From Octopus vulgaris (taxonomy: Eukaryota), in assembly GCA_951406725.2 (NCBI GenBank), contig OX597817.1:104346001-104410000 (forward strand): a stretch of 64,000 bases of DNA, written 5' to 3'. A program made the translations under genes and the position numbers. The stretch's first letter is position 1. Every line of letters begins with the position of its first letter. The notes beneath the pieces are model-generated. The model ran no database searches. It was not told the origin of the DNA and saw only the letters and a program-made list of their open reading frames with translations. Positions 4,604 through 62,640 of the stretch are shown piece after piece.

Positions 4604-4684
4604 AATAAATACACACACACTTATATGAGTGTATGAATGTACGTTTGTATGTGTGCACGCATGCATGTATGTATGTATAGTTGA

Positions 4685-6066
4685 TGTATGTACAGATGGT
4701 TTTCTGTATTGCATTCAGAAACTGCAGATATGGTATTTACATCCATTATCGAACCTCTGGCAGCATATTTAATATCAAGCCCTTTGCTGCAAAAACAAAG
4801 GTATTTACCTCTATCATAAGAGACCTTTTGTGTGCAGATGATTGTGATCTAGTAGCGCACACAGAGATTGATATGCAATACATTTTGAATGCATTCTCTG
4901 ATGCTTGCACTGCCTTAGGATTGACAGTCAATCTCAAGAAAACTCTTGTCATGTACCAACCTGCCCTTGGTAAGCAGTATAGTGTACCAAATATATATGT
5001 ATATGGTAAACGACTTGATGTAGTTGATCAGTTTGTCTACCTGGGAAGCACTGTTAATAGATATGGCAATTTGGCTGATGAAATTCCATACAGAATTGGG
5101 AAAGCAAGTGATGCTTTCGGAAGGCTAGAAAGGCGCCTCTGGAGTCGGCGAGACATATGCAGAAAGATAAAGATAAAGGTGCACAAGGCATGTGTGCTCC
5201 CTTCTCTTCTCTATGCCTGCGAGACGTGGTTCACTTATCGATACCACCTTAAACAACTGGAACGTTTCCATCAGATGTGTCTCAGACGGATCTATGGCAT
5301 TAAGAGGGACTGCATCAGTGATCTTTAAATGTTGGAAGGCTCTCGGTGCGAAAGTATAGAAGCTCTTGTGTTAAAGGAAAGGCTCAGATGGAGTGGTCAT
5401 CTGATCAGGATGAAGGATTCCAGGATGCCAAAACAACTCTTTTATGGAGAGTTAGCTGAAGGAGAACGACCCCCACATAAACCAAAAAAGATATATAAGG
5501 ACTTGCTGAAGGCTTCCTTAAGAGATGCTTGCATTTCTCCTGACACATGGGAGGGCATAGCTATTGATTGTAGCAGGTGGAGAAGGATTGTGCATGAGGA
5601 GACAGCTACTTTTGAGAAATCTCGAGTTGCGCATGAGAAAGTAAGGAGGGATGTCAGGAAGAGCATTGCTGTTACACTTCCAGATGGGAAGGGTATTCCT
5701 ATGATGCTGACATGCAGTGTCTGTGCAAGACCTTGCCTCAGTAAAGCTGGACTCAAGAGTCATCTTTGTTGTCATAAAGCAAAACAGATGAGTGACAACC
5801 TGGCCACTGGTGATGGTGTTAGACACCATACTAATCATATCTGTCAGGCATGTGGAAGAGAGTGTAATTCGGCAGGAGGACTTAAACGACATGCAAAGGT
5901 ACATGAAGCCCAGTTACAACTACAGCCGGCTATTACCGGTAAAGGTTTTAGTTGCCAATTCTGCACAAGGCATTGTAGATCTTTAGCTGGGCTAAAAAGT
6001 CATTCGATCACAGCACCAATAACAGTTAAGCTTCGTGCAATGGCCATACTCGAGGGGGCAGCCATC
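4685..6066 (+). mobile_element. 5'-truncated RTE-clade LINE (C-terminal RT plus three C2H2 fingers)
   Basis: ORFs 4681-5328 and 5329-6078 are in one frame split by a stop; LLCADDCDL (YADD-like), FVYLGS, RLRWSGHLIRM, PKQLFYGEL; 12-bp TSD ATGTATAGTTGA at 4673-4684 and 6067-6078. Confidence 0.9.
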
Positions 6067-6294
6067 ATGTATAGTTGACACCATAAGGTTTTATAATCTT
6101 TTGAGAGACCGTGGGATAATTCGTTTTTTTTTTATTTGGATCTCGAAGCACATATAATGCAATAAATAATAAAAAATGTCGAAGGCTGCCTTCGGCTTTT
6201 TTTATGTAAATGAGTTTTTCAACGCAACATTTACATGCTGCTGTTTATAGCTTTACAAGTATGTGTAGTTCGAGATCCGGTTCTCAAAATGAAT

Positions 6295-11699: not shown

Positions 11700-14600
11700 T
11701 AAATTTGTCTACAATGTCATAGTCAGCCAAAAGAATGTCTCTGTCCAGGGAAAGGGAGACAGCTGCAGAAAGGGAAGCACACCAAGAAACGAACAGGCTG
11801 TGTACTACAAAAATCAGAACATCTCAAAGTAATGAACAGAAGTATGCACGACTGACAAGGAATAGGATCTCCACTGCAGAACGAAGAGCAGTTGCAACAG
11901 CTCAGAGAAGCAACTTCTATGAAGCAGCTTTCGATTATGATCCAGCAATTCATTATGCAGATGACATTGGAGTTTCTATTGGTGCAATGACAACGGAGTG
12001 CATATATTGTAAAGCAAGGAAGTGTCTTGGAGAAACACCTGCACTGTGCTGCGGTGGTGGAAAGGTTAAATTTCCTGCAATCCCCCTACCTCCAGAGCCA
12101 TTGAAGAAACTGTTGTCATCAACTGACCAAGATTCCAAGCACTTCCAAAACAAAGTTAGACAGTACAATGCTGCACTACAGATGACATCATTTGGAGCCA
12201 CAAGAGATATAATTGAACCAGGATTCATGCCAACTTTCAATGTCCAAGGTCAGATTTATCATCGGATTGGCTCTCTACTACCTCTGTCGAATGAATCACC
12301 AAAATTCCTTCAAATATATTTTATGGATGATTCTCAATAGAAATGCAAGAACATTTCCGGCATCAGGATGAACATTGTAGTGTCTCTGCAAAAGATGCTG
12401 CATTGCAGTAACAACCTGATCAGAAGCTTCAAAACAGCGCTTGAAACAATTCCACCTGACTCCATGGATTATAAAGTAGTTATCTGATCAGACAAGAAAC
12501 CATCTGGTCAACATGGAGAGAGGGTTAATGCGCCAACGGTAAATGAAATAGCTGTGCTTCTGGTTGAGCAAGAACATGACAAACGTGATATTGTCTTCCA
12601 TCTCAGAGGCAGCACATTGATGAGGATTTCAGAAACGCACAGATCCTATGATGCACTACAATATCCATTGCTGTTCTGTTATGGACAAAATATTTACCAC
12701 ATTGACATTAGTCAGACAAACTTCTCAAAGCGAGTTTCAGCCAATGACTTCTATGCATTCCGCATCAGGAGTTAAGATTCAAACCACATCCTACATTGTA
12801 GAGGTCTGTTCAGTCAGTTCATTGTTGACACGTATGCATAAACTGAAAGTGAACGATTACTCTACTTGAGACTGAACCAGAAGAAATTGAGTGTGGAATC
12901 ATATGCACACCTACAAGATGCAATGCTGAATGATCATGATGTCAGCAACATGGGCCAACTGATCATCCTTCCATCATCATTCACAGCAAGCCCAAGATAC
13001 ATGCATGAGCACACACAAGATGCCATGACATATGTTAGACACTACTTCAGAACAGACCTCTTCATAACCTTCACATACAATCCTAAAGGGAAAGAGATTC
13101 AAAATGAACTCTTCTCAAACCAACAGCCTAACGATAGGCAAAGGTCTTCAGACAGAAGGTTATCAAGCTCATGCAGTTACTGACCAAAGATAAAGTGTTC
13201 GGTGCCACTAGATTCCACATATATACAATACATTGGCAGAAACGTGGACTTCCTCATGTACACATCCTGCTCTGGCTTACAGACTAAATCTATGCCTGGA
13301 TAATAGATAAGTTCATCAGTGCAGAGATTCCAGATCCTCAGAAGATCCAGAACTCTTCAATGTGGTCAAGACCCAAATGGTTCATGGTCCATGTGGCAAC
13401 ATCAACTTACATGCTCCATGCATGCAGGATAGAAAGTGTAGAAAAGGCTTTCAAAAGAAGTTCCTTCAAGAGACACAGACTGGACATGATGGCTATCCAC
13501 TCTACAGAAGAAGAAGGCCAAGTGATGATGGGTTTGAAACCAACAACAAGAGGTTATCTGAAACTGAAATTCCCGTTGACAATATCTCTTCAAGATATTC
13601 AACGCACACATCAATGTTGAGTTCTGTAACTCAGTGAAATCCATTAAGTATGTGTACAAATATGTCAACAAAGGATCTGACATGGCAGTCTGTGCAGTCC
13701 AGGATTCAGGGAGCAATGCTAAAATCAAGACCTTCCAAATGTGAAGGTGTATCAACAGTGGTGAAGCATGTTGGAGAATCTTCAGGTTCCCCATTCATGA
13801 GAGATATCCCCACGTGCAACATCTTGCAGTTCACTTGGAGAATGGCGAAATGGTTTACTACATCCTAGACACAGTCCAACTACAAATGGAAGCTCACACT
13901 CACAGTATTCTTCAAGCTCTGTCAAGATGATGAATTTGTTACAACACTACTATACAATGAAGTTCCACCATTCCATACCTGTTGCCAAAACAAATGGAAA
14001 AGACGTGCACCTGGAGCACCCACAAATCATCCGTGAATCAAAAAATCAGACACACTTGGCAGTGTCTATGTTGTCCATCCAAACTACTCAGAGTGCTACT
14101 ATCTAAGACTTCTATTACACCATGTCAAGGGACCCACATCATTTACAGCTTTATGTACGGTTGATAACACAGTATGTCAAACATATCGCCAGGCTTGCCA
14201 TCTCAGAGGTTTTCTGGAAGATGATGCATACTGGGATGTCACTCTGACAGAGGCACAAATGTGCAAGTCTCCTATGCAACTGAGAAACCTCTTCTCCATC
14301 ATGCTGGTGAACTGTGGATTGTCAAATCCAGATCAACTTTGGTACAAATACAAGGAGGGGCTTTCTGGAGACATTCTTCAAAGAATTAAATATTAGTGTG
14401 ACTGTGATGTCACGTTCAATGATGACATTTTCAATGAAGCATTAAGATTAATAGACAACAAGGTTCAATCACTGGATGGAAACAAACTTGAAATCTATGG
14501 TCTTCCAGCTCCTGTCAGAGATGCTAAATATATATTAGCACAAGAGCTAATCAGGGAAACATCATACAACTTGAAAAGTGTGCAAGCAGTTGTCAATGAA

Positions 14601-16149
14601 AAGGAACCAATTCTGCTACAGGATCAAAAGGGGGTATACTGGCAAGTTCTTACATCTGTGGACAATAACACTGGGGGGGGGGGTTTCTTCTTAGATGCTC
14701 CTGGAGGCACATGAAAGACATTATTGATCAATCAGTTCCTTGCCAAGGTGAGACAGAAGATTGCTCTGGCTGTTGTATCCTCTGGAATTGCATCTTCACT
14801 TCTGACAAGTGGAAGAACAGCCCATTCAACATTCAAGCTGCCTCTGAACCTCATCCAAAATGAATCTCCTTTATGCAACATATCCAAGAATACAGCATTA
14901 GCAAAGCTCCTTACAGATGCCAAACTCATCGTCTGGGATGAGGCAACAATGTCCCAAAAGGCAGCCTTTGTGGCGCTTGATACAACATTACAAGACTTCA
15001 GAAGCAATTAGATCATGGGTGGTGTCACCCTCCTCATGGCAAGTGACTTCAGGCAAACGCTGCTTGTCATTCCCAGAGGAACAAGGGCAGATGAGCTGAG
15101 AGCTTGCATCAAGTCTTCATATATCTGGCAACATGTCAAGCAGCTTACTCTGACAAGCAACATGAGGATCCACATTCATGGTGATCCGTTAGCCACACAG
15201 TTCTCCAATAAGTTACTTGACATTGGAAGTGGAAAGCTTCCACAAGATCCAGAAGATAGTCTGCACCATCTCCCATGTGGTAATATGACTGCCTCCGTTG
15301 AAGAACTAAAGAGCAAGGTGTTTCCAAACATTGCCACAAACTATAAAAGTCACAAGTGGCTATGTGGGAGAACAATTCTGGCACCAAGGAATGATGCTGT
15401 AGACAAGCTGAATTCAAATTTGTTGCCTCAGCTTCCAGGACCTAATCAATTGCGTACAGATCAATTGACTCTGTTCCTGATCAAGAACAGGCAACGCATT
15501 ACCCAGTGGAGTTCCTCAATTCACTTCAGCCACCAGAATTTCCACCACACATTCTGATCGTGAAAACAGATGCTCCCATAAAGCTATTAAGAAACCTTGA
15601 TGCACCCAGACTCTGCAATGGAAGAATATTGGTTGTTAAAATAGCTATGCTTCATGTGTTGGAAGCAACAATAATTACAGGCAACATGATGGGGAGAATG
15701 TCTTCATTCCAAGGATACCTCTCATCTCAAATGATCTCCCCTTTCAGTTCAAGAGACTGCAATTTCCTGTCAAACTTAGCTTTGCAATGTCTATCAAAAA
15801 AGCACAAGGTCAGTCTCTAAAGGTGGTGGATCTTAAACTCCTTCAATCCTGTTTCTCACATGGTCAGCTGTATGTTGGATGTTCTAGAGTTTGAGATAAA
15901 AAAAGAACCTCTACATTCTCAGGGATAAACATGGCAAGACAAAAAACACAGTATATGAAGAAGCACTTACATAGTAGGTCCATGTCATATACAGAAGTGT
16001 AAAACCATTGAGTGTTAAAGTATTACTATTACATTACTATTACACTGTCACTTTTAGACTGACATGCGTGAATGTATATCTGCAATGGGATGAGGCAACA
16101 ATGTTCCATAACCTTGGAGCCCCAGTAATCCGTTACAGCACTTATCTAG
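11700..16149 (+). mobile_element. Decayed autonomous Helitron (RepHel pseudogene)
   Basis: N-terminal CxxC..CC; Rep motif 1 DLFITFTYNP, HUH motif WQKRGLPHVHILLW (~13235), motif 3 KYVYKYVNKG (~13645); PIF1-type helicase LDAPGGT*KT, IVWDE, AQGQSL, HGQLYVGCSRV; many stops and frameshifts; weak hairpin plus CTAG at 16146-16149; 5' end not located. Confidence 0.93.
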
Positions 16150-19343: not shown

Positions 19344-19579
19344 GTGTATTCAATATATAGTAGTTACGATACGTTCCAGTTTATTATCATTGCTTCGGTT
19401 AGTTTGAAATTATGTTCCGTTTTTTCGGAAATTTAGAATATTTTTTATTTATGACTTTTATATTGATCTGTCAGAAATGTCGTAATATATTGATACATTA
19501 TGAAACACTTTTAGCAATAGCTCAACCAGGATTTGAAACCAAAACCCTTTACTTTACTCTCACGAATAAACCTCAATAT

Positions 19580-19968
19580 TCTTTTCTACTCTAGGCACAA
19601 GGCCCGGAATTTGGGGGAGGGGCCAGTCGATTAAGTCGGCCTCAGTACGCAACTGGTACTTAATTTATTGACCCTGAAAGGACGAAAGGCAAAGTCGACC
19701 TCGGCGGAATTTGAACTCAGAACGTAAAGACAGACGAAATACCTATTTCTTTACTACCCACAAGGGGTTACACAGAGAGGACAAACAAGGACAGACAAAC
19801 GGATTAAGTCGATTATATCGACCCCAGTGTGTAACTTATTTAATCGACCCCGAAAGGATGAAAGGCAAAGTCGACCTCGGCGGAATTTGAACTCAGAACG
19901 TAGCGGCAGATGAGATACCACTAAGCATTTCGCCCGGCGTGCTAACGTTCCTGCCAGCTCACTGCCTT
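19580..19968 (-). mobile_element. Nested family B SINEs (LINE-tailed copy joined to another SINE at GTATTTCGTCTG)
   Basis: Minus-strand junction ...CCCCTTGTGGGTAGTAAAGAAATAG|GTATTTCGTCTG at 19743/19742. Confidence 0.85.
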
Positions 19969-20129
19969 CAATAAACCATAATATTCAGAATTGTTCCCTC
20001 GATTAAAAATCCAGATGGCCATTAAAAAACCAATTGACGACAGGAAGTTTTCGTGGATTGAGAGAAACAATAGAATTATCTGAACTCAACTCGTTCACAC
20101 ATTGATAAATGATATTATCAGGTCTTATT

Positions 20130-22902: not shown

Positions 22903-22995
22903 TGGTAATTGTATGAAATATTACCTGATAAAAACACGTGTTTGATATATTTTTAAACGCTACAATTCTACTTGATAATATGTTACGTGCATGTA

Positions 22996-23060
22996 AGACG
23001 GCGAAGCTGGTAGAATCGTTAGCACGCCGGGCGAAATGCGTAGCCGTATTTCGTCTGTCG
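22996..23060 (+). mobile_element. 5' head of a family B SINE interrupted by the Tx1-like LINE
   Basis: GGCGAAGCTGGTAGAATCGTTAGCACGCCGGGCGAAATGCGTAGCCGTATTTCGTCTG; the SINE resumes at 28400. Confidence 0.85.
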
Positions 23061-23507
23061 CACATGTGTTCGTGAAGTAAGAATTGCTGTTTCGTGGTGT
23101 TAATATTGTTAACAACTGTTGTTTCTTGTTAAACTGTTGAATAACTTAACTGTTGGAGTTTTCAATTGAAAACACTTAGTGCTTGTGGTAGCACGCGTTG
23201 TTCATTCCCCCTTTGGGGGGAAGAATGTCGTCTAGCATGGAGCCTACCGTTGGAGCAGAAATACTTGTTTCTCCTGTTGAGAGGAGGAAATACATGTCCG
23301 GCGAGGAGCCAACTACAGACAAGGAAATAGGGGTTTCCCCCGCTACAAGAAGGAATAGCAGAGAGGATAATATATTTGATATTTTTGGAGATGTGTCTGA
23401 GAGCTCGTCAGAACTTTCACCAGAAGAGTTTCCGACTTTGCCAGAGAACAAAGGCATTGTGTCGAAGAGAATAATTGATGTGCCTAGCATCCAGATAGAA
23501 CCAAAAA

Positions 23508-24749
23508 ATGGAAAAAAAAGTTTTGTCGTTGGCTGCTGGGGGTGGAACCCAGATACTGTCGACGAATAAAAGCGAAATTATGAAATACAGCAAAATGATG
23601 GAAATAACTGACAACGGTGTGAAAATTGAACCTCCGCAAAAGTTATTACAGGAAGAAAAGCAAAAAACAATAATTTTCAAAACATATTGTCTACAAAAAA
23701 GAAAAATTGAAAGAATGTCAGAAGAGAAAATAGAAAAGTGCTTAAAGCCAATATTGGGCGACGTAGTATTTCTGAGAAGAGGAAAAAAATTCGGAACGGT
23801 GGAAGTAAGGTTCACCAATAAAGAAATAGCACACAAGAACTCAGTTGAAACGTTGAAAACGAACGACGTGGAGTTAATCCCCTATTATAGGGGGATGAGG
23901 ACGTCGCGAATAAAAATTACAAGGGTCCCGCCAGAGGTCGAACCTATGTGGTTGTTGGCGGCAGTCCTAATCAAAGAGGTAAAAAAAATTACTCTCCTCC
24001 AGGCTACCGCTACGGAAAACCCACGCTGGGATGGTCAAACAATTAATCTTCTCATTCAAGCGGACCCTAAAATAATTCAAACAATTCCTGAGACAATTGA
24101 GGTAGGGGAGGAGAACCTCGTGGTGTTTGTTGAGGGCCGAAAACCTCGATGTTTTTTATGTGGTCAATTAGGCCACATTCGAAGGAACTGCAAGGAAAAT
24201 GAAGAAGAGGAGGAAGAGGAGAAAAAAGACAAAGAGGAAGAAGATAAAGAAGAAACAGATGAGAAAAAAACAACAAACAAAAGAAAAATACAACCAGCAA
24301 CCCAGCCGAGAGCGGCGACTACTACAGAACAACGACCAAAAAAGACTGCCAGAAGAGAAAAAGCAGAAAAAGGCATAATAGCCGTATACACTAAAGATAC
24401 TGAGCTCATGAGAGACATTCAACTCATAAAGACTAAAAAAATTGATAACCTTTCAGAGGAATTTATCAATTACGACATATATGAAGTCTCAAATAAGACT
24501 TATAGAATTCTACAAAATAAGTACAGAAAGACTGTATCTTCATTGAGATTAGATTTTAACAAGTCGATATTTCATGGATTACCAGCTCCGATCCCGCGAG
24601 AAAAGGAAAAGGTGGAGATTCCCCCTCCACCTGATAATTCTGTGTCGGTGGTGAGACGGGATTTTGACAAATCTATTTCCCAAGACCATCCACCGACCCT
24701 GGATCAAAAAAAGGTGGAGGGTCCCCCTCCACCGGACAATCCTAATTAA
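23508..24749 (+). CDS. LINE ORF1, gag-like zinc-knuckle protein (may extend upstream to ~23225 across a frameshift near the A-run at ~23515)
   Basis: 413-aa ORF with CCHC knuckle CFLCGQLGHIRRNC followed by an E/K-rich tract; lies just upstream of ORF2. Confidence 0.85.
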   Translation: MEKKVLSLAAGGGTQILSTNKSEIMKYSKMMEITDNGVKIEPPQKLLQEEKQKTIIFKTYCLQKRKIERMSEEKIEKCLKPILGDVVFLRRGKKFGTVEVRFTNKEIAHKNSVETLKTNDVELIPYYRGMRTSRIKITRVPPEVEPMWLLAAVLIKEVKKITLLQATATENPRWDGQTINLLIQADPKIIQTIPETIEVGEENLVVFVEGRKPRCFLCGQLGHIRRNCKENEEEEEEEKKDKEEEDKEETDEKKTTNKRKIQPATQPRAATTTEQRPKKTARREKAEKGIIAVYTKDTELMRDIQLIKTKKIDNLSEEFINYDIYEVSNKTYRILQNKYRKTVSSLRLDFNKSIFHGLPAPIPREKEKVEIPPPPDNSVSVVRRDFDKSISQDHPPTLDQKKVEGPPPPDNPN

Positions 24750-24757
24750 ACAGGTAA

Positions 24758-27700
24758 GTGATGGCTATTCACATTGGTTGTTTAAATGTTCATGGCCTGT
24801 TGTCAAGCTGGAAGCAAGGACGCTTTCTGAATGACATCAGGTCGAGAAATTTGGATGTAATTGTTGCAACGGAAACCCGGGTGAAGGGGCCAAGAGATCT
24901 GCTCCCCCTCCTGAACGGCTACGAGAAATACGTTTCTCCGAGTCGGGCGGGAGGTGGGGGTGGGGTGTTGGTCCTACTAAAAAGAAACCGGGTAGCCGAG
25001 AAAAAGTTGGTTTTTTCTGACCCAGAAGGCAGGCTGGTCGTTCTCGATTTGACATTCAGTTGTGGCAAGACAATCAGGCTGGTCGCTATTTACGCACCAA
25101 ACATTATTGGCCCGCAAACTGAATATTTTCGTGGCCTAGGAAAGTTCCTAGCCACGTCGCATTCACTAGTAGTGTTAGGAGACTCTAATACAATATGTGC
25201 AGCACACACAGATTGTGTTGGCTCAAACTCGAACATGAACAGAAAATGTAACCCAGGCTTTCGGGATCTGCTAAGTGAATTTCAGCTAGCAGATCCATAT
25301 AGGTTGGAGCACCCGAACACTCCACAGTGGACGTGGTCAAATAGTGACGGGTCTACCAGAACATATCTAGATAGGATTTTAATTAGAGAAAAAGATAAGT
25401 CCATAGTTGAGTGTCCACAGTTTTTTCTAGTCAGCTACAGTGACCACAAGATGGTTACCTGTAAACTGACGGTAGATAAGTTGCATAGACAGGGATCTGG
25501 CTACTGGAAACTCAATACGTCCCTTTTGGCGATTGAGGAGTACAGAAAGCGGATCAAGATGTTAATACAGAGGGCATTAACAGGTACCATCATTAATAAC
25601 AAATGGTGGTACGCCCTAAAAAGAGCCATCAAATATGAGTCTATTAGGTTTAGCATAAGTTTAGCTAAGAAGGGACGTAAAATAGGAGATGGTCTAGTTA
25701 AGGAACTAGAAGAAGCCTGGAGGACTTGTAATACAGACCAAGCGAGGGTGAAAAGACTGGAGTTAAACCAACATCTTGAAGCCCACCACATGGGAAGTAT
25801 TACCAGAGCTAAGTTACGTGCAATGGGAAGTGAAGGAATCAAAGCCGCTGGATGGGCCCGAGTGGTGGAAGCTCGGCAAGGAAATAGTTCCTCTATTCGG
25901 TCTTTGACGAATCAAAATGGTGTCTTGATAAACGAACCCGAGAAAATGTGTGAGGTCTTTCGGGAGTACTTCGCCCAGCTGTTCGGGGGTGACGGCGGTC
26001 CTGGTGGTGGGAGAGCCCTCGAGGACTTTCTTACCGGGCTGCCGTGCCTCTCGGGGTCGGATGCGGAGTCTTGCGAAGGGCCAATCACACCTGAGGAGGT
26101 GATGGAGGCTTTGGCCGATTGTAAAGCGGGTAAGTCACCGGGACTTGATGGTCTTCCGTACGAGCTGTATAAATGTATGCCAGACTTGTTCGGGCAACTA
26201 CTGACTGACGTGTACGCGAACTGGAAACAGAATGGGTTTATCCCCAGATCTGTGCGCCGGGGAGTAGTGACGTTGGTCAGAAAGGACCCGGACAAGGGGG
26301 ACGTTCTAGATAATTTCAGGCCCATCACTCTGTTAAACGCAGAAGTGAAGATTTTGGCCAAGGTTCTAGCAAAAAGGTTGGCGCGTGTCGCGATTGGTAT
26401 AGTCGGGGAGGCACAGACATGTGCCATCCCAGGCAGAACCATTCAAGATACCCTCCATCTTATTCGCTATACCATAGAGAGGTTTGGTAATAAATCTGGC
26501 AAAGGTGGGGCATTGGTGCATTTGGACCAGTCTAAAGCTTTTGATAGGGTTGACCATCGATACCTAGCGACTGTACTTGCGCGGTTTGGCCTGGGCCTTG
26601 GCTTCCTCGGGTGGTTTATCGCTTTGTACCACAACATTGACTCGATAGTTCGGGTGAACGGTTTCCTTTCGAAGCCGTTCTGCATCAGACGCTCGGTTCG
26701 TCAAGGATGTCCGCTTTCACCACTTTTGTATGTGATGGCTCTCGAGCCATTACTGCAAAGGTTGAGTGGCATCCCGAGAGAACCAGGACTAGAGGAGTTT
26801 GTTACGGCTTTCGCGGATGATATCACTATCAGTGTAACCACAGTGGCACGCCTACGTGAAGTAGGTAAGACTATTGAGGCTTACGAGGAGGTAGCAGGAG
26901 CAAAGATTAACCGGGAAAAGTCGGTCGGCTTGCAGCTCGGCACCTGGGTTGGCAAGTCGATGCCTTCAGACAGTGTTGTTAGGCGCTGGACGGAGGGACC
27001 GGTTAAGTTGCTGGGAGTCTGGTTTGGACCAGGCCTCCAGATAGAGAAGAACTGGACGGAGGTATTGAGCAGGGTGGCTGCAGTAGTCAAGACCTGGTCT
27101 TGGCGATGGCTATCCCTGAAAGGGAGGGCGGAAGTGGCCAATGTGTTTATCGTATCGGTCATTACCTACCGCCTGACCGTCGTGCCGTCCGGATTCGTGG
27201 TTGATCAGGTTGGAGAGACAGCTCTTTCGCTTTTTGTGGAAGGGCAGGTCGCCACTTGTGAAACGCTCTGTCTGCTGTCAAAAGCCTTTAAATGGAGGTT
27301 TAGGGATGCCTTGGTTAATGATGCGCAGACATGCGTTGAGGTTGAGGCACCTCTGGATTCTCCTGGATAGTGAACGGGTGTGGTCTCCGCTGGCCAGACA
27401 AATGTTCCCTGAGTTCAAGAGTTTTTGCGAACAGGAAGCCTGGTGTTCTCGTAGACCGAGGTCGAGTGAGTGGCATAAAGAGTGCCGTAAGGCCCTCTTG
27501 CTGTTCCGGCGCTCGGGCAACGCCAGCGGTGGGGGTTCCACACGGATTTTATATAGTGGGTTGGTAGAGTCTGAATGCGACGATGGCCTGGGGTCGACTC
27601 TAGGTCTCGGATTTATTCAACTGGACAGCTTGTTTCATCGTACATTCGGGTTGAGAACGTTGGACAACTTCCAAAAGTCCTTAACCTGGCAATGCTACAG

Positions 27701-28163
27701 AGGTGCCTTGCCCCTTTGGGATAAGCTCGCAAGACATGGTAAACGTCAGTCGCCGACCTGTCCAAGATGCGGTGGGGACAGGGAAACCGTCCCTCACGCT
27801 ATTGTTCAGTGTCCGGAGATAACTGAAATGTGGGCTTATGCTGAACATCTGTTGTCCGGCGAAGGAAGAGTACGGCTGTCGACTGAGTCAATTATAAAAA
27901 TTGACCCACCGGGAGTTCTAACGAACGAGGGTAAGAATTATTTTCTCACGGTTGTAGCAATAGCAAAAGAGGCTGTATGGAAGACTAGGATAAAAGGAAT
28001 TAAGACAGGCAACTTTATCTCTGGTGACAATTTGCGATCCTTTTTTTTTTCTTTTCATTTGAAAAGGAAACTGTGGCTGGAGAAGAGGTGTCTGTCAGAG
28101 TGTACGTTCCAAAAGAGATGGAAGTATGTTGCACGAGTGTTGTGCGTGCAAGGAACCGTGTGA
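24758..28163 (+). CDS. LINE ORF2, APE endonuclease plus reverse transcriptase plus C-terminal zinc finger (one frameshift near 27190)
   Basis: GCLNVHG, IYAPN, YLDRI, SDH endonuclease motifs; GYWKLN, KSPGLDG, FRPITLLN, KAFDRV, RQGCPLSP, AFADD; continues in ORF 27201-28163 with GGLG and CPRC..ET..H...C. Confidence 0.93.
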
Positions 28164-28399
28164 ATAGACGAGAAAAAAAAAAAAAAAAGGTATCAGCGGT
28201 AGATCGGGGCTTGTGGGATCGGAGCGTAACTTGATCATCGCTTCATTTGTATTGTTTTTGTACTGTGTATTCCATTCGATTTTTATGTATTGTATTTTAT
28301 TTTTGATGTCACATTTATGTAAAATCATATCGATTCACTGATCTCATCAGTTGTACTGTCCATATCTATGTTTGGCCCCCGGTGAGCAATAAAGAAATT

Positions 28400-28932
28400 C
28401 GTATTTCGTCTGCTGTTACGCTCTGATCTCAAATTTCGCCAAGGTCGACTTTGCCTTTCATCCTTTCGGGGTCGATAAATTAAGTACCAGTTACGCACTG
28501 GGGTCGATGTAATCGACTTAATCCGTTTGTCTGTCCTCGCTGTGTTTAGCCCCTTGTGGGTAGTAAAGAAATAGGTATTTCGTCTGTTGTTACGTTCTGA
28601 GTTCAAATTCCGCTGAGGTCGACTTTGCCTTTCGTCCTTTCGGGTTCGATTAAATAAGTACCAGTTGCGCACTGGGGTCGATATAATCGACTTAATCTGT
28701 TTGTCTGTCCTTGTTTGCCCCCTATGTGTGTAGCCCCTTGTGGGCAGTAAAGAAATAAGAAACGTTAGCTGAGCAGCATTTCGTCTGTCTCTACATACTG
28801 AGTTCAAATTCGTCGAGCTCGACTTTGCCTTTCGTGATCGATAAAATGAGTACCAGTTGGGCACTGGGAGTTAATGTAATCGACTTACTCCTCTCACGAA
28901 ACTGCTGGCCTGGTGCCAAAACTTGAAACCAA
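28400..28932 (+). mobile_element. Three tandem family B SINE bodies, the first two ending in a LINE-like tail
   Basis: Units start near 28400, 28575 and 28760; tails CTGTCC..GCCCCTTGTGGG.AGTAAAGAAAT. Confidence 0.85.
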
Positions 28933-29582
28933 TATTTTAAGTGCATGTGCTGCCATGTAAATAATAGCTGCTTCGTACATGTTTCTGTTCACCTTTTTCT
29001 ATCCCTCGGCCAGATTCTCAATCTTTTAAGTGATAAAGATAAATCGTACATCTTACTGTCTCACATATCCTTTCAACACTTGCTAGGAACTGCCTTCATA
29101 TTCAGAAAAAAACATGCAAATATGTAAATATATTTGCAGTAAAAAGAAATCCCTAGATCCTCTGACTTGTGAGAAGAGGAGACTAATTCACCCTTAATAC
29201 TCAATTCACACGTTGCGACTCTTAAAAACATGTGTGATATTTCCATTGGTCCCAATTTCAATTTCCTTTGCACCTGGAATCAACTCCCATGGTCCTGGCT
29301 TCAACTCCAATTGTTCCACGTTTCACTTCTGGAAATTATGGTAATCCTACCTATAGACGAAATAAAAATAGTTTGGAATCAGAATTAAGGAGTGAAGTTT
29401 TCTAAGTGAACTCCTATGATGATGGTAGCCTCTCGCAGTCCAAGAAAGATGACTCTACAATTTCTTGATGGATAACCTGCACAAATGATTTGTTTATAGT
29501 GATCAAACGTTTCTACTGTACATTAAACTCTTAATTGGTTAATATAGCATTTGAGTGATGGTAACTTACATATTTACACATA

Positions 29583-61463: not shown

Positions 61464-62640
61464 CAGTGGTTGGACATCCAAAATAATGGAAACACCTAGC
61501 ATCATAATTTTGAAATATCTTTAAAACCATCAAAAGCTGGTTTATTTTTATGCTTTTTTTTATTTATTATTAGTGTTGCTTAATATGTTTTGCTAAAATT
61601 GCTGTTTCTTTTCAGATATCATCAGAAAAAGGTAATTAAAATTCATTAAAATGACAGATCTCTGGACTTCCAAAGAGGTCAAATTTTTGGTGCTTGTATG
61701 GCAGGTGCTAGTGTAACAAAAACAGCCAAAATGTTTGGTGTATCAAGAAGTACTGTCTCGAAAGTAACCACAACTTTTGAGAAAGAAGGAAAAACCTCCT
61801 CGTCAAAACAAAACTCCTGAAGAAAACCAAAACTTTCAAATAGGGACTATCAGATTCTTGCTTGAATTGTTAGAAAGGATTACAAAAGTACAGCTCCCAA
61901 AATTACTGCAGAGCCGGATTTCATAGGAGGGCTGCAATCAGAAAACCACTACTTTCAAAAACAAACATTGTAAAGCATTTACAGAATTGGTCCCTAGAGC
62001 AGTAGAAGAATGTTATTTTCTTGGACGAGTTATCCTTTACCTTATTTCTGACCACCAGTCAAATATATGTGTGGAGACAGCCATGACCCAGACTGCCTTC
62101 TTCCAACTGTTAAACATGGAGGAGGAACTGTGATGATCTGGGTGGCTATATCTTGGAAATCTGCCAGCCCAATGGTTTCTGTTCATGGCAGAATTAATAG
62201 TCAAGACTATTTAAGCATTTTATCTAATCAAATTCATCCTATGGTTGCAGAACTTTTTCCAGAAGGAAACACAATCTGTCAGGATGATAATGCACCAATT
62301 CACACAGCTAAAGTTGTTACTGAATGGTATGAGGAACATTCTAGTGAAGTTGAACATCTTATCTGGCCACCACAGTCCCCAGATCTCAATATTATTGAAC
62401 ATTTATGGTACATTTTAGAAAAACGAGTAAGGAGTCGATATCCTCCACCATCATCACTACAAGAACTGGAGACTGTTTCAGCCGAAGAATGGAAAATTCC
62501 TTTGGAAACTATTCAGACTTTGTACAAGTCAATACCTCATAGAATTCAAGCTGTAATTACTGCCAAAGGCAGTCCTACACCATATTAAAGTAAATTTGTT
62601 TGAAATGTTAAGGTGTTTCCATTATTTTGTCCAACCCCTG
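61464..62640 (+). mobile_element. Tc1-like DNA transposon, DD36E type, inactive
   Basis: TA|CAGTGGTTGGACA..AAAATAATGGAAACACC and GGTGTTTCCATTATTTTGTCCAACCCCTG|TA TIRs; TVKHGGG, QDDNAPIH, WPPQSPDLNIIE; stops, frameshifts and deletions in the 5' half. Confidence 0.93.

Follow-up and report, generated by a model that had tools for sequence, protein, structure and literature searches.

Why do SINEs that end like a LINE run straight into the interior of another SINE? The arrangement was seen in a 64-kb stretch of the Octopus vulgaris genome, which we call the window; positions are those of the window unless a locus is named. A first-pass annotation had picked out three such copies. It proposed that the SINE inherited the target preference of a Tx1-like LINE along with its tail and carries the target itself, so that each insertion would create a new target and tandem arrays would grow.

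We call the LINE-tailed SINE Y, and we call the other SINE tails A (AAAATTTGAAACC) and B (TAGAGTAG or TATAGTAG). Site 1 is the position before GGTATTTCG and site 2 is the position before AGAAACGTTAG. Two of the three copies lie in a stack that extends from 22977 to 28948:

22977-22994, + strand: left copy of an 18-bp outer target-site duplication, which encloses the head, the LINE, two Y units and an older SINE (2 mismatches to 28931-28948)
22995-23057, + strand: the sole SINE head of the stack, tRNA-like, of the "GCGTAGCC" variant, read directly from the sequence
23045-23057, + strand: left copy of the LINE's 13-bp duplication, CGTATTTCGTCTG, which is the end of the SINE head
23058-28399, + strand: full-length Tx1-like LINE of family alpha, with Pfam domains and with relatives that are 95-100% identical
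23499-24749, + strand: ORF1 of LINE alpha, with a CCHC knuckle (Pfam)
24758-28163, + strand: ORF2 of LINE alpha, with AP endonuclease, RT and zf-RVT domains (Pfam) and one frameshift near 27190
28364-28399, + strand: 3' tail of LINE alpha, aligned with the Y tail
28400-28573, + strand: Y unit 1, the remainder of the SINE that was split by the LINE, with the Tx1-like tail at its end (sequence read)
28400-28412, + strand: right copy of the LINE's duplication, the start of Y unit 1, with the same 13 bases as 23045-23057
28574-28757, + strand: Y unit 2, headless, starting at site 1 (GGTATTTCG; sequence read)
28758-28930, + strand: older A-tailed SINE, entered at site 2 (AGAAACGTTAG; sequence read)
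28931-28948, + strand: right copy of the outer duplication, paired with 22977-22994

The third copy is part of a dimer at 19565-19985:

19744-19968, - strand: full-length Y SINE with head and Tx1-like tail, whose core has 0 substitutions from the Y majority
19581-19743, - strand: headless B-tailed SINE that starts at site 1 (sequence read)
19970-19985 and 19565-19580, - strand: 16-bp duplication around the dimer (2 mismatches)

As annotated, all three copies (28400-28573 and 28574-28757 on the + strand, 19744-19968 on the - strand) bear the LINE-like tail, and they are followed by GGTATTTCGTCTG twice (at 28574, and at 19743 on the - strand) and by AGAAACGTTAG once (at 28758). The end of the LINE, at 28364-28399, aligns with this tail, 32-33 of whose last 40 bases are identical to the young LINE. 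The copy at 28400 is not a free insertion but the 3' portion of a SINE that has its head at 22995-23057: the LINE at 23058-28399 sits in that head and is flanked by the 13-bp duplication. The three SINE bodies of the stack have one head among them. The two Y units have just one substitution in common, so Y unit 2 is not a duplication of Y unit 1. We infer that the A-tailed SINE was the founder. In the simplest history, a Y would have entered this old copy at site 2, a second Y would have entered the first at site 1, and the LINE would then have split the second Y.

Read against the promoter-box consensus, we take the run at 23008-23018 in the head to be A-box-like and the run at 28425-28435 in Y unit 1 to be B-box-like. 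With these runs, and being non-coding, dispersed and flanked by duplications, the element has the features of a tRNA-derived SINE (SINE2). It may resemble the MetaSINE superfamily or the octopus SINEs OK, OR1 and OR2. Across the 64-kb window, scans for tRNAs (ARAGORN) and for Rfam families gave 0 matches. Elsewhere in the window there is a decayed mobile-element frame at 4681-6078, with an RT-like tail and zinc fingers, and another decayed frame at 62052-62588 with a DDE_3 transposase (Pfam). The pieces at 11723-15557 are presumably Helitron-like, with no Pfam match for 11723-12340. The motif of the SINE was not found in the 2 supplements of PMC4824008 that we searched for published octopus SINEs.

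To see how general the arrangement is, we searched the genome (2.8 Gb in 227 contigs). An exact 24-mer from the Y tail occurs 99,045 times, and the reversed control 0 times. At least 25,289 of these exact tails have GTATTTCGYC within the next 0-4 bases, which is a lower bound. For an unbiased sample, we took 1 Mb as 100 segments of 10 kb at fixed coordinates. This yielded 168 SINE bodies, of which we set aside 17 that had no recognisable tail and 3 whose tail was incomplete. The 3' flank is a SINE interior for 31 of 70 Y copies, 0 of 33 A copies and 3 of 45 B copies (31/70 Y versus 3/78 for other tails; Fisher's p = 2e-9). Sorting copies by tail type, as the first-pass annotation had suggested, thus bears out the link between the LINE-like tail and a SINE flank, but the majority of Y copies (39/70) have unique 3' flanks, so what holds for all three copies in the window is not a rule. 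Similarly, the claim of an inherited target stands insofar as SINE and LINE use the same exact site, which the SINE carries in its own head, but not for the 39 copies at unique short-motif targets. As for the B-tailed SINEs, they are sometimes found at sites 1 or 2 (L102:6970-7300 and L153:5412-5700; 3/45, with one more borderline).

The unique-flank Y copies lie at GGTWT, TATAT, GATAT or AGAAA-type sites. In a larger set, 32 of 66 unique-flank Y copies with a head have duplications of 12-20 bp (null expectation 0.85%). At three loci (L012, L015 and L023), unique-flank Y copies lie at GGTACTGGC inside what appears to be one other repeat family; this is a possible third preferred site.

A preference for short motifs does not account for the insertions at site 1. 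Site 1 accounts for just 47 of 1,473 GGTAT sites (3.2%), but for 20 of the 23 Y copies flanked by GGTAT, or 11 of 14 if only non-Y neighbors are counted (p = 1e-14). Even with an 8-mer as the motif, the enrichment persists (10/10 versus 53% expected, p = 0.002). The enrichment of the tailed SINE at site 1 is far above the short-motif rate, which rules out chance use of the motif as its cause.

The LINE is more specific still. It has what is expected of the Tx1 clade: two ORFs, a CCHC knuckle in ORF1, and an AP endonuclease and an RT of the L1 group in ORF2. Among solved structures, the best relative of ORF2 is human L1 ORF2p (E = 2e-55, versus 1e-20 for R2), and the best named match is "Transposon TX1 149 kDa protein" (31%). 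In a quick RT tree that was built without a curated Tx1 set, LINE alpha groups with the TX1 149 kDa protein with a weak support of 81, and plant L1 falls outside.

In the best 30 of 245 candidate LINE 3' ends, a SINE interior comes next in 30/30 (two of these are one duplicated locus), and the flanking SINE is Y-tailed in 27/30. In the best 30 of 64 candidate full-length 5' ends, a SINE head lies upstream in 30/30. When we searched for the LINE tail without selecting on the flank, we found 78 exact 3' ends, and 75 of them run on into site-1-like sequence: TTCGTATTT in 51, TTGGTA in 19 and close variants in 5, with something else in 3. For comparison, Kojima's criterion for site specificity is that more than 20% of flanks are in one repeat, with duplications; the insertions of LINE alpha have duplications of 13-16 bp. 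Nearly all insertions of this LINE lineage hit a single position, which lies between the SINE's two promoter boxes. The LINE is itself a strict SINE-targeting element, which goes beyond what the first-pass annotation saw.

We also fetched 20 older 3' ends of the G-type and variants, from relatives that are about 81-95% identical. Seventeen lie within SINEs, of all three tail types (Y, B and A), two are behind the same site at another LINE's 5' end, and one is at a unique GGTATT. The site lies upstream of 12/12 older 5' ends, and it is preceded by a SINE head in 4, a Y tail in 3 and a LINE tail in 5. Since LINEs are found behind sites that follow Y or LINE tails, the site that is rebuilt behind a tail is re-used. 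This agrees with the idea that each insertion makes a new target. At five LINE-LINE junctions (L267 and L282-L285), a common site variant, GGTATTGCG, suggests that a tandem master was copied by read-through.

The youngest LINEs are choosier. All of their exact 5' junctions (34/34) have the C-variant head. A C-linked marker is present downstream in 28 of 29 young-LINE targets, versus 50 of 82 G-variant heads (p = 1e-4), which indicates that the young LINE picks C-variant targets rather than overwriting them. That the LINE RNA carries a whole SINE head and overwrites the target's is also disfavored by the divergence of the pre-LINE heads (0.077, versus 0.064 for C-variant Y), and the downstream marker matches.

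Which LINE mobilizes Y? The last 34 nt fold into one hairpin in all 15 tails that we compared, with 96.4% of cells paired. Covariation in the stem is weak: 2 of 11 pairs changed on both sides, and 29 of 500 shuffles scored as high. Over 40 bases, the Y tail is identical to the alpha lineage at 29-33, to family epsilon at 31-35, and to a family that targets (TATC)n at 31-36. The tail does not tie the SINE to this one LINE, because sibling Tx1 families with other targets match equally well (29-36/40). These families form one clade in a quick tree (support 99), with similar tails and different targets.

Among Y copies at site 1, the C-variant flank is found in 1 of 83, and the GCGTAGCC C-variant makes up 25 of 107 Y heads. 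Because C is present in 1/83 of these flanks versus 34/34 for the young LINE, the window's young LINE subfamily is probably not the mobilizer of most Y copies. Given that site 1 points to the alpha lineage, the partner of Y was probably its older members. Older alpha copies are few (tens were found) against more than 25,000 SINE events. Also, the flank class tracks Y subfamilies: flanks of the TA.. class follow 13/28 copies with the CC marker versus 4/88 with CG (p = 9e-7), and copies with the AC marker are at GG/site 1 in 20/20. This is consistent with several partners or with RNA guidance.

Sibling families with related tails were seen at other loci. Tx1-like families end in (TATC)n microsatellites at L112, L165, L189, L091 and L125, and one copy of another family ends in (TC)n (L114:4274-4340). 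Family epsilon (L293-L322; 30 of 419 candidates) is alpha's sister in the tree. In 4/30 epsilon copies, the tail is the closest to the SINE's over the last 25 bases; in the remaining 26, the sequence downstream is mostly unique and GGATG-like. At L181:4629-4950, a B-type SINE tail lies about 290 bases past the end of a Tx1-like ORF2; this may be B's partner LINE or else an insertion that was truncated.

If Y inserts into the head of an older SINE, then the downstream partner should be older than the Y, and it is. In 23 dimers of Y with A or B, the core divergence is 0.091 for the downstream partner versus 0.049 for Y, and the partner is older in 17/23 (p = 0.004). B cores are as diverged in dimers (0.097, n = 20) as when free (0.102, n = 10), and the B1 partners (n = 20) are star-like, with no clusters of common variants. 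With halves of unequal age, the partner about twice as diverged, and partners that do not cluster, one fixed dimeric SINE is ruled out.

What happens to the target's head? We found 184 exact junctions of nested insertions and examined 30, of which 2 lacked a Y tail. At 22 informative sites of the nested cases, the upstream duplication agrees with the target 17 times and with the insert 3 times. In single-head dimers, the duplication zone matches the Y majority at 34 of 42 informative sites and the target at 5. Fully nested insertions with both heads account for 3 of 63 first units; the other 60 have a single head. Heads of Y-B dimers are Y-like along their full length: their divergence (0.092, n = 16) is similar to that of free Y (0.080, n = 52, p = 0.30) and below that of free B1 (0.157, n = 10, p = 0.015). 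Since the single head is the newcomer's in most dimers, the target's promoter was likely replaced at insertion. A slow collapse of two heads after insertion is disfavored, as nested (n = 29) and single-head (n = 49) inserts are equally diverged (p = 0.40) and 6/49 single-head inserts have no core substitution.

We consider the following account probable. A Tx1-like LINE inserts between the two promoter boxes of the SINE head; about 40% of Y SINE insertions hit that position too, likely with the endonuclease and RT of that lineage. The full-length SINE cDNA would pair with the homologous head of the target, and the new head would replace the old one. The product would be the new head, the new body and its tail, followed by a headless old copy. 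In about 5% of cases the pairing would fail, giving a fully nested insertion that keeps both heads. The LINE, without homology to the head, would leave the target head in place with its promoter split. Other Y copies would reach short-motif sites, likely by sibling Tx1 enzymes or relaxed cutting. Finally, the resulting 184-bp direct repeats would seed DNA-level expansion into long arrays.

The main rival is that dimers move as units: RNA from a Y head reads through the headless old copy and is re-inserted from the older tail. The source would be a minority of the nested loci, and no head replacement would be needed. This would account for the pure Y head, the old-looking partner and the duplication around the whole dimer, all of which we see. 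Also, the runs of T in the SINEs that we read reach only three, which makes Pol III read-through plausible. But B partners in re-inserted dimers should fall into clusters of common variants, which they do not, and the source loci would still require targeted insertion. The detectability of the outer duplications also leans against re-insertion. They are detectable in 7/19 Y-B1 dimers, 3/15 free B1 (p = 0.45) and 36/52 free Y (p = 0.03), and so dimers are nearer to free B1 than to free Y; their mismatches (7/96 in dimers, 3/44 in free B1 and 29/462 in free Y) do not separate the models. Three dimers have a Y core with zero substitutions, while the youngest of 15 free B1 copies is at 0.027. Because no free B1 is that young, the machinery for B tails looks inactive at the time of the youngest dimers. 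We view co-mobilization as unlikely.

Another possibility is that arrays and dimers are mainly DNA-level duplications (by slippage or unequal crossing-over), which would make them SINE-derived satellites, with targeting playing a minor part. In the unbiased sample, stacks are mostly short (33 single, 7 double and 2 triple). Rare variants in common (two or more) are found in 9/45 adjacent Y-Y pairs, versus 2.2% of random pairs; the other 36 pairs look independent, as do the two units in the window. Nor can copying at the DNA level produce dimers of Y with B or A, nested copies flanked by target-specific duplications, or LINEs inserted at that very base. It does explain the long arrays. Ten arrays were chosen for having several exact matches, which biases them towards homogeneous ones. 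The four that we examined with five or more units (L323 with 10, L324 with 7, L325 with 6 and L328 with 5) are all homogenized, with locus-private variants and often a distinct last unit. SINE-derived satellites are known in reptiles, where, according to the accessible part of PMC10702118, parts of SINEs are amplified in tandem; the likeness applies to the long octopus arrays only. DNA-level duplication is refuted as the main cause and holds for arrays of five or more; as the overall explanation, it is very improbable. The idea that arrays grow by insertion survives for short stacks but not for the long arrays examined: targeting seeds the repeat, and DNA-level processes lengthen the array. 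A tandem array of the 64-bp SINE head alone, with 9 units (L333, at G000:C10:17995000-17997800, and L073), was apparently seeded by a nested insertion.

We give similarly little credence to RNA-guided targeting, in which a read-through 3' flank pairs with the nicked DNA and passes on the copy's flank as the target. The linkage of flank class to SINE markers and the five tandem LINE junctions with a common site variant would both fit. But a succession of partner enzymes over time would explain the marker linkage just as well, and a direct test was negative: in 32 unique-flank duplications, mismatches within the first five bases favor GGTAT in the downstream copy in 7 cases and in the upstream copy in 5 (p = 0.77). 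These counts show no signal of a 3' overwrite by read-through RNA.

Returning to targeted insertion with head replacement, its two sides might be read jointly as a closed loop of host and parasite, in an arms race over a single cut site. The LINE would land in its own parasite's promoter and disable that copy by parting the promoter boxes. The SINE would turn the same enzyme on older SINEs and overwrite their promoters. The younger head variant GCGTAGCC would have escaped the old enzyme (1/83 insertions, though it makes up 25/107 Y heads), and the youngest LINE subfamily would have re-tuned its endonuclease to this variant (34/34 junctions, with the marker in 28/29). We offer this joint reading tentatively, and it may well be wrong.

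Parts of this system have precedents. In crocodilians, SINEU share the target preference of a Tx1 group (Tx1-Mar), with 13-90% of copies at the target, according to the accessible part of Kojima 2015 (PMC4494074). As in octopus, the SINE takes the Tx1 target, tandem SINE copies flank the duplication, and sibling elements hit microsatellites. Thus, target inheritance by Tx1-mobilized SINEs, and tandem copies around the duplication, are already published. Unlike the octopus SINE, SINEU target a third element (Mariner-N4), and that part of the article reports no tail common to SINE and LINE. In octopus, the SINE is aimed at its own head and has a tail in common with the LINE, there are more than 25,000 junctions, and the target head is likely replaced in most cases. 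Other site-specific LINEs of the Tx1 clade are Tx1L (in Tx1D), Keno (in U2), and Kibi and Koshi (in microsatellites), as described there. These, too, use a repeat as a safe landing site, and the octopus siblings go to (TATC)n and (TC)n, but among the targets in the accessible part of PMC4494074 there is no SINE promoter and no element that is likely a parasite of the LINE itself.

For R2, the accessible part of Eickbush et al. 2013 (PMC3774820) proposes that 5' junctions form by a heteroduplex of cDNA and target, with occasional tandem duplications upon failure. Similarly, in octopus, upstream homology in the RNA would give seamless 5' junctions, and failure would give an upstream tandem duplication. 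In contrast, the endonuclease of R2 is restriction-like and its target is rRNA, while the homology in octopus is the SINE promoter, and the promoter swap is deduced from sequence comparisons. Zepp is an autonomous LINE that forms self-nested clusters, one per chromosome (accessible part of PMC3446292). It likewise stacks into its own copies, but the octopus stacks are dispersed and short, and are made of a non-autonomous SINE. The accessible parts of six articles on octopus or mollusc SINEs or Tx1 (PMC13282606, PMC8967140, PMC4824008, PMC4758252, PMC5786205 and PMC3747384) describe no such SINE/LINE system. Our literature search found no Tx1 family that targets a SINE head, no stacking of the Y SINE and no self-targeting SINE/LINE loop, although Repbase or Dfam entries, figures and subscription papers may hold such cases. 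The octopus system works like SINEU/Tx1-Mar but differs in its target, the promoter of the SINE itself, which a LINE insertion splits and a SINE insertion likely replaces.

More than 25,000 natural events provide data on how AP-type LINE endonucleases change their targets: close sibling families aim at the SINE head, at a one-base variant of it, at GGATG, at (TATC)n or at (TC)n. The same data bear on how 5' junctions are resolved in non-LTR insertion when cDNA and target are homologous. They also suggest how the seeds of SINE-derived satellites arise. With about 30-80 near-identical copies, the young LINE family is a candidate for a site-specific integrase, one whose target is 13-16 bp or longer. 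For the octopus, these results suggest why a SINE can reach a very high copy number cheaply, as a large share of its insertions land in, and silence, older SINEs. Each of the two, parasite and host element, likely serves the other as a landing pad.
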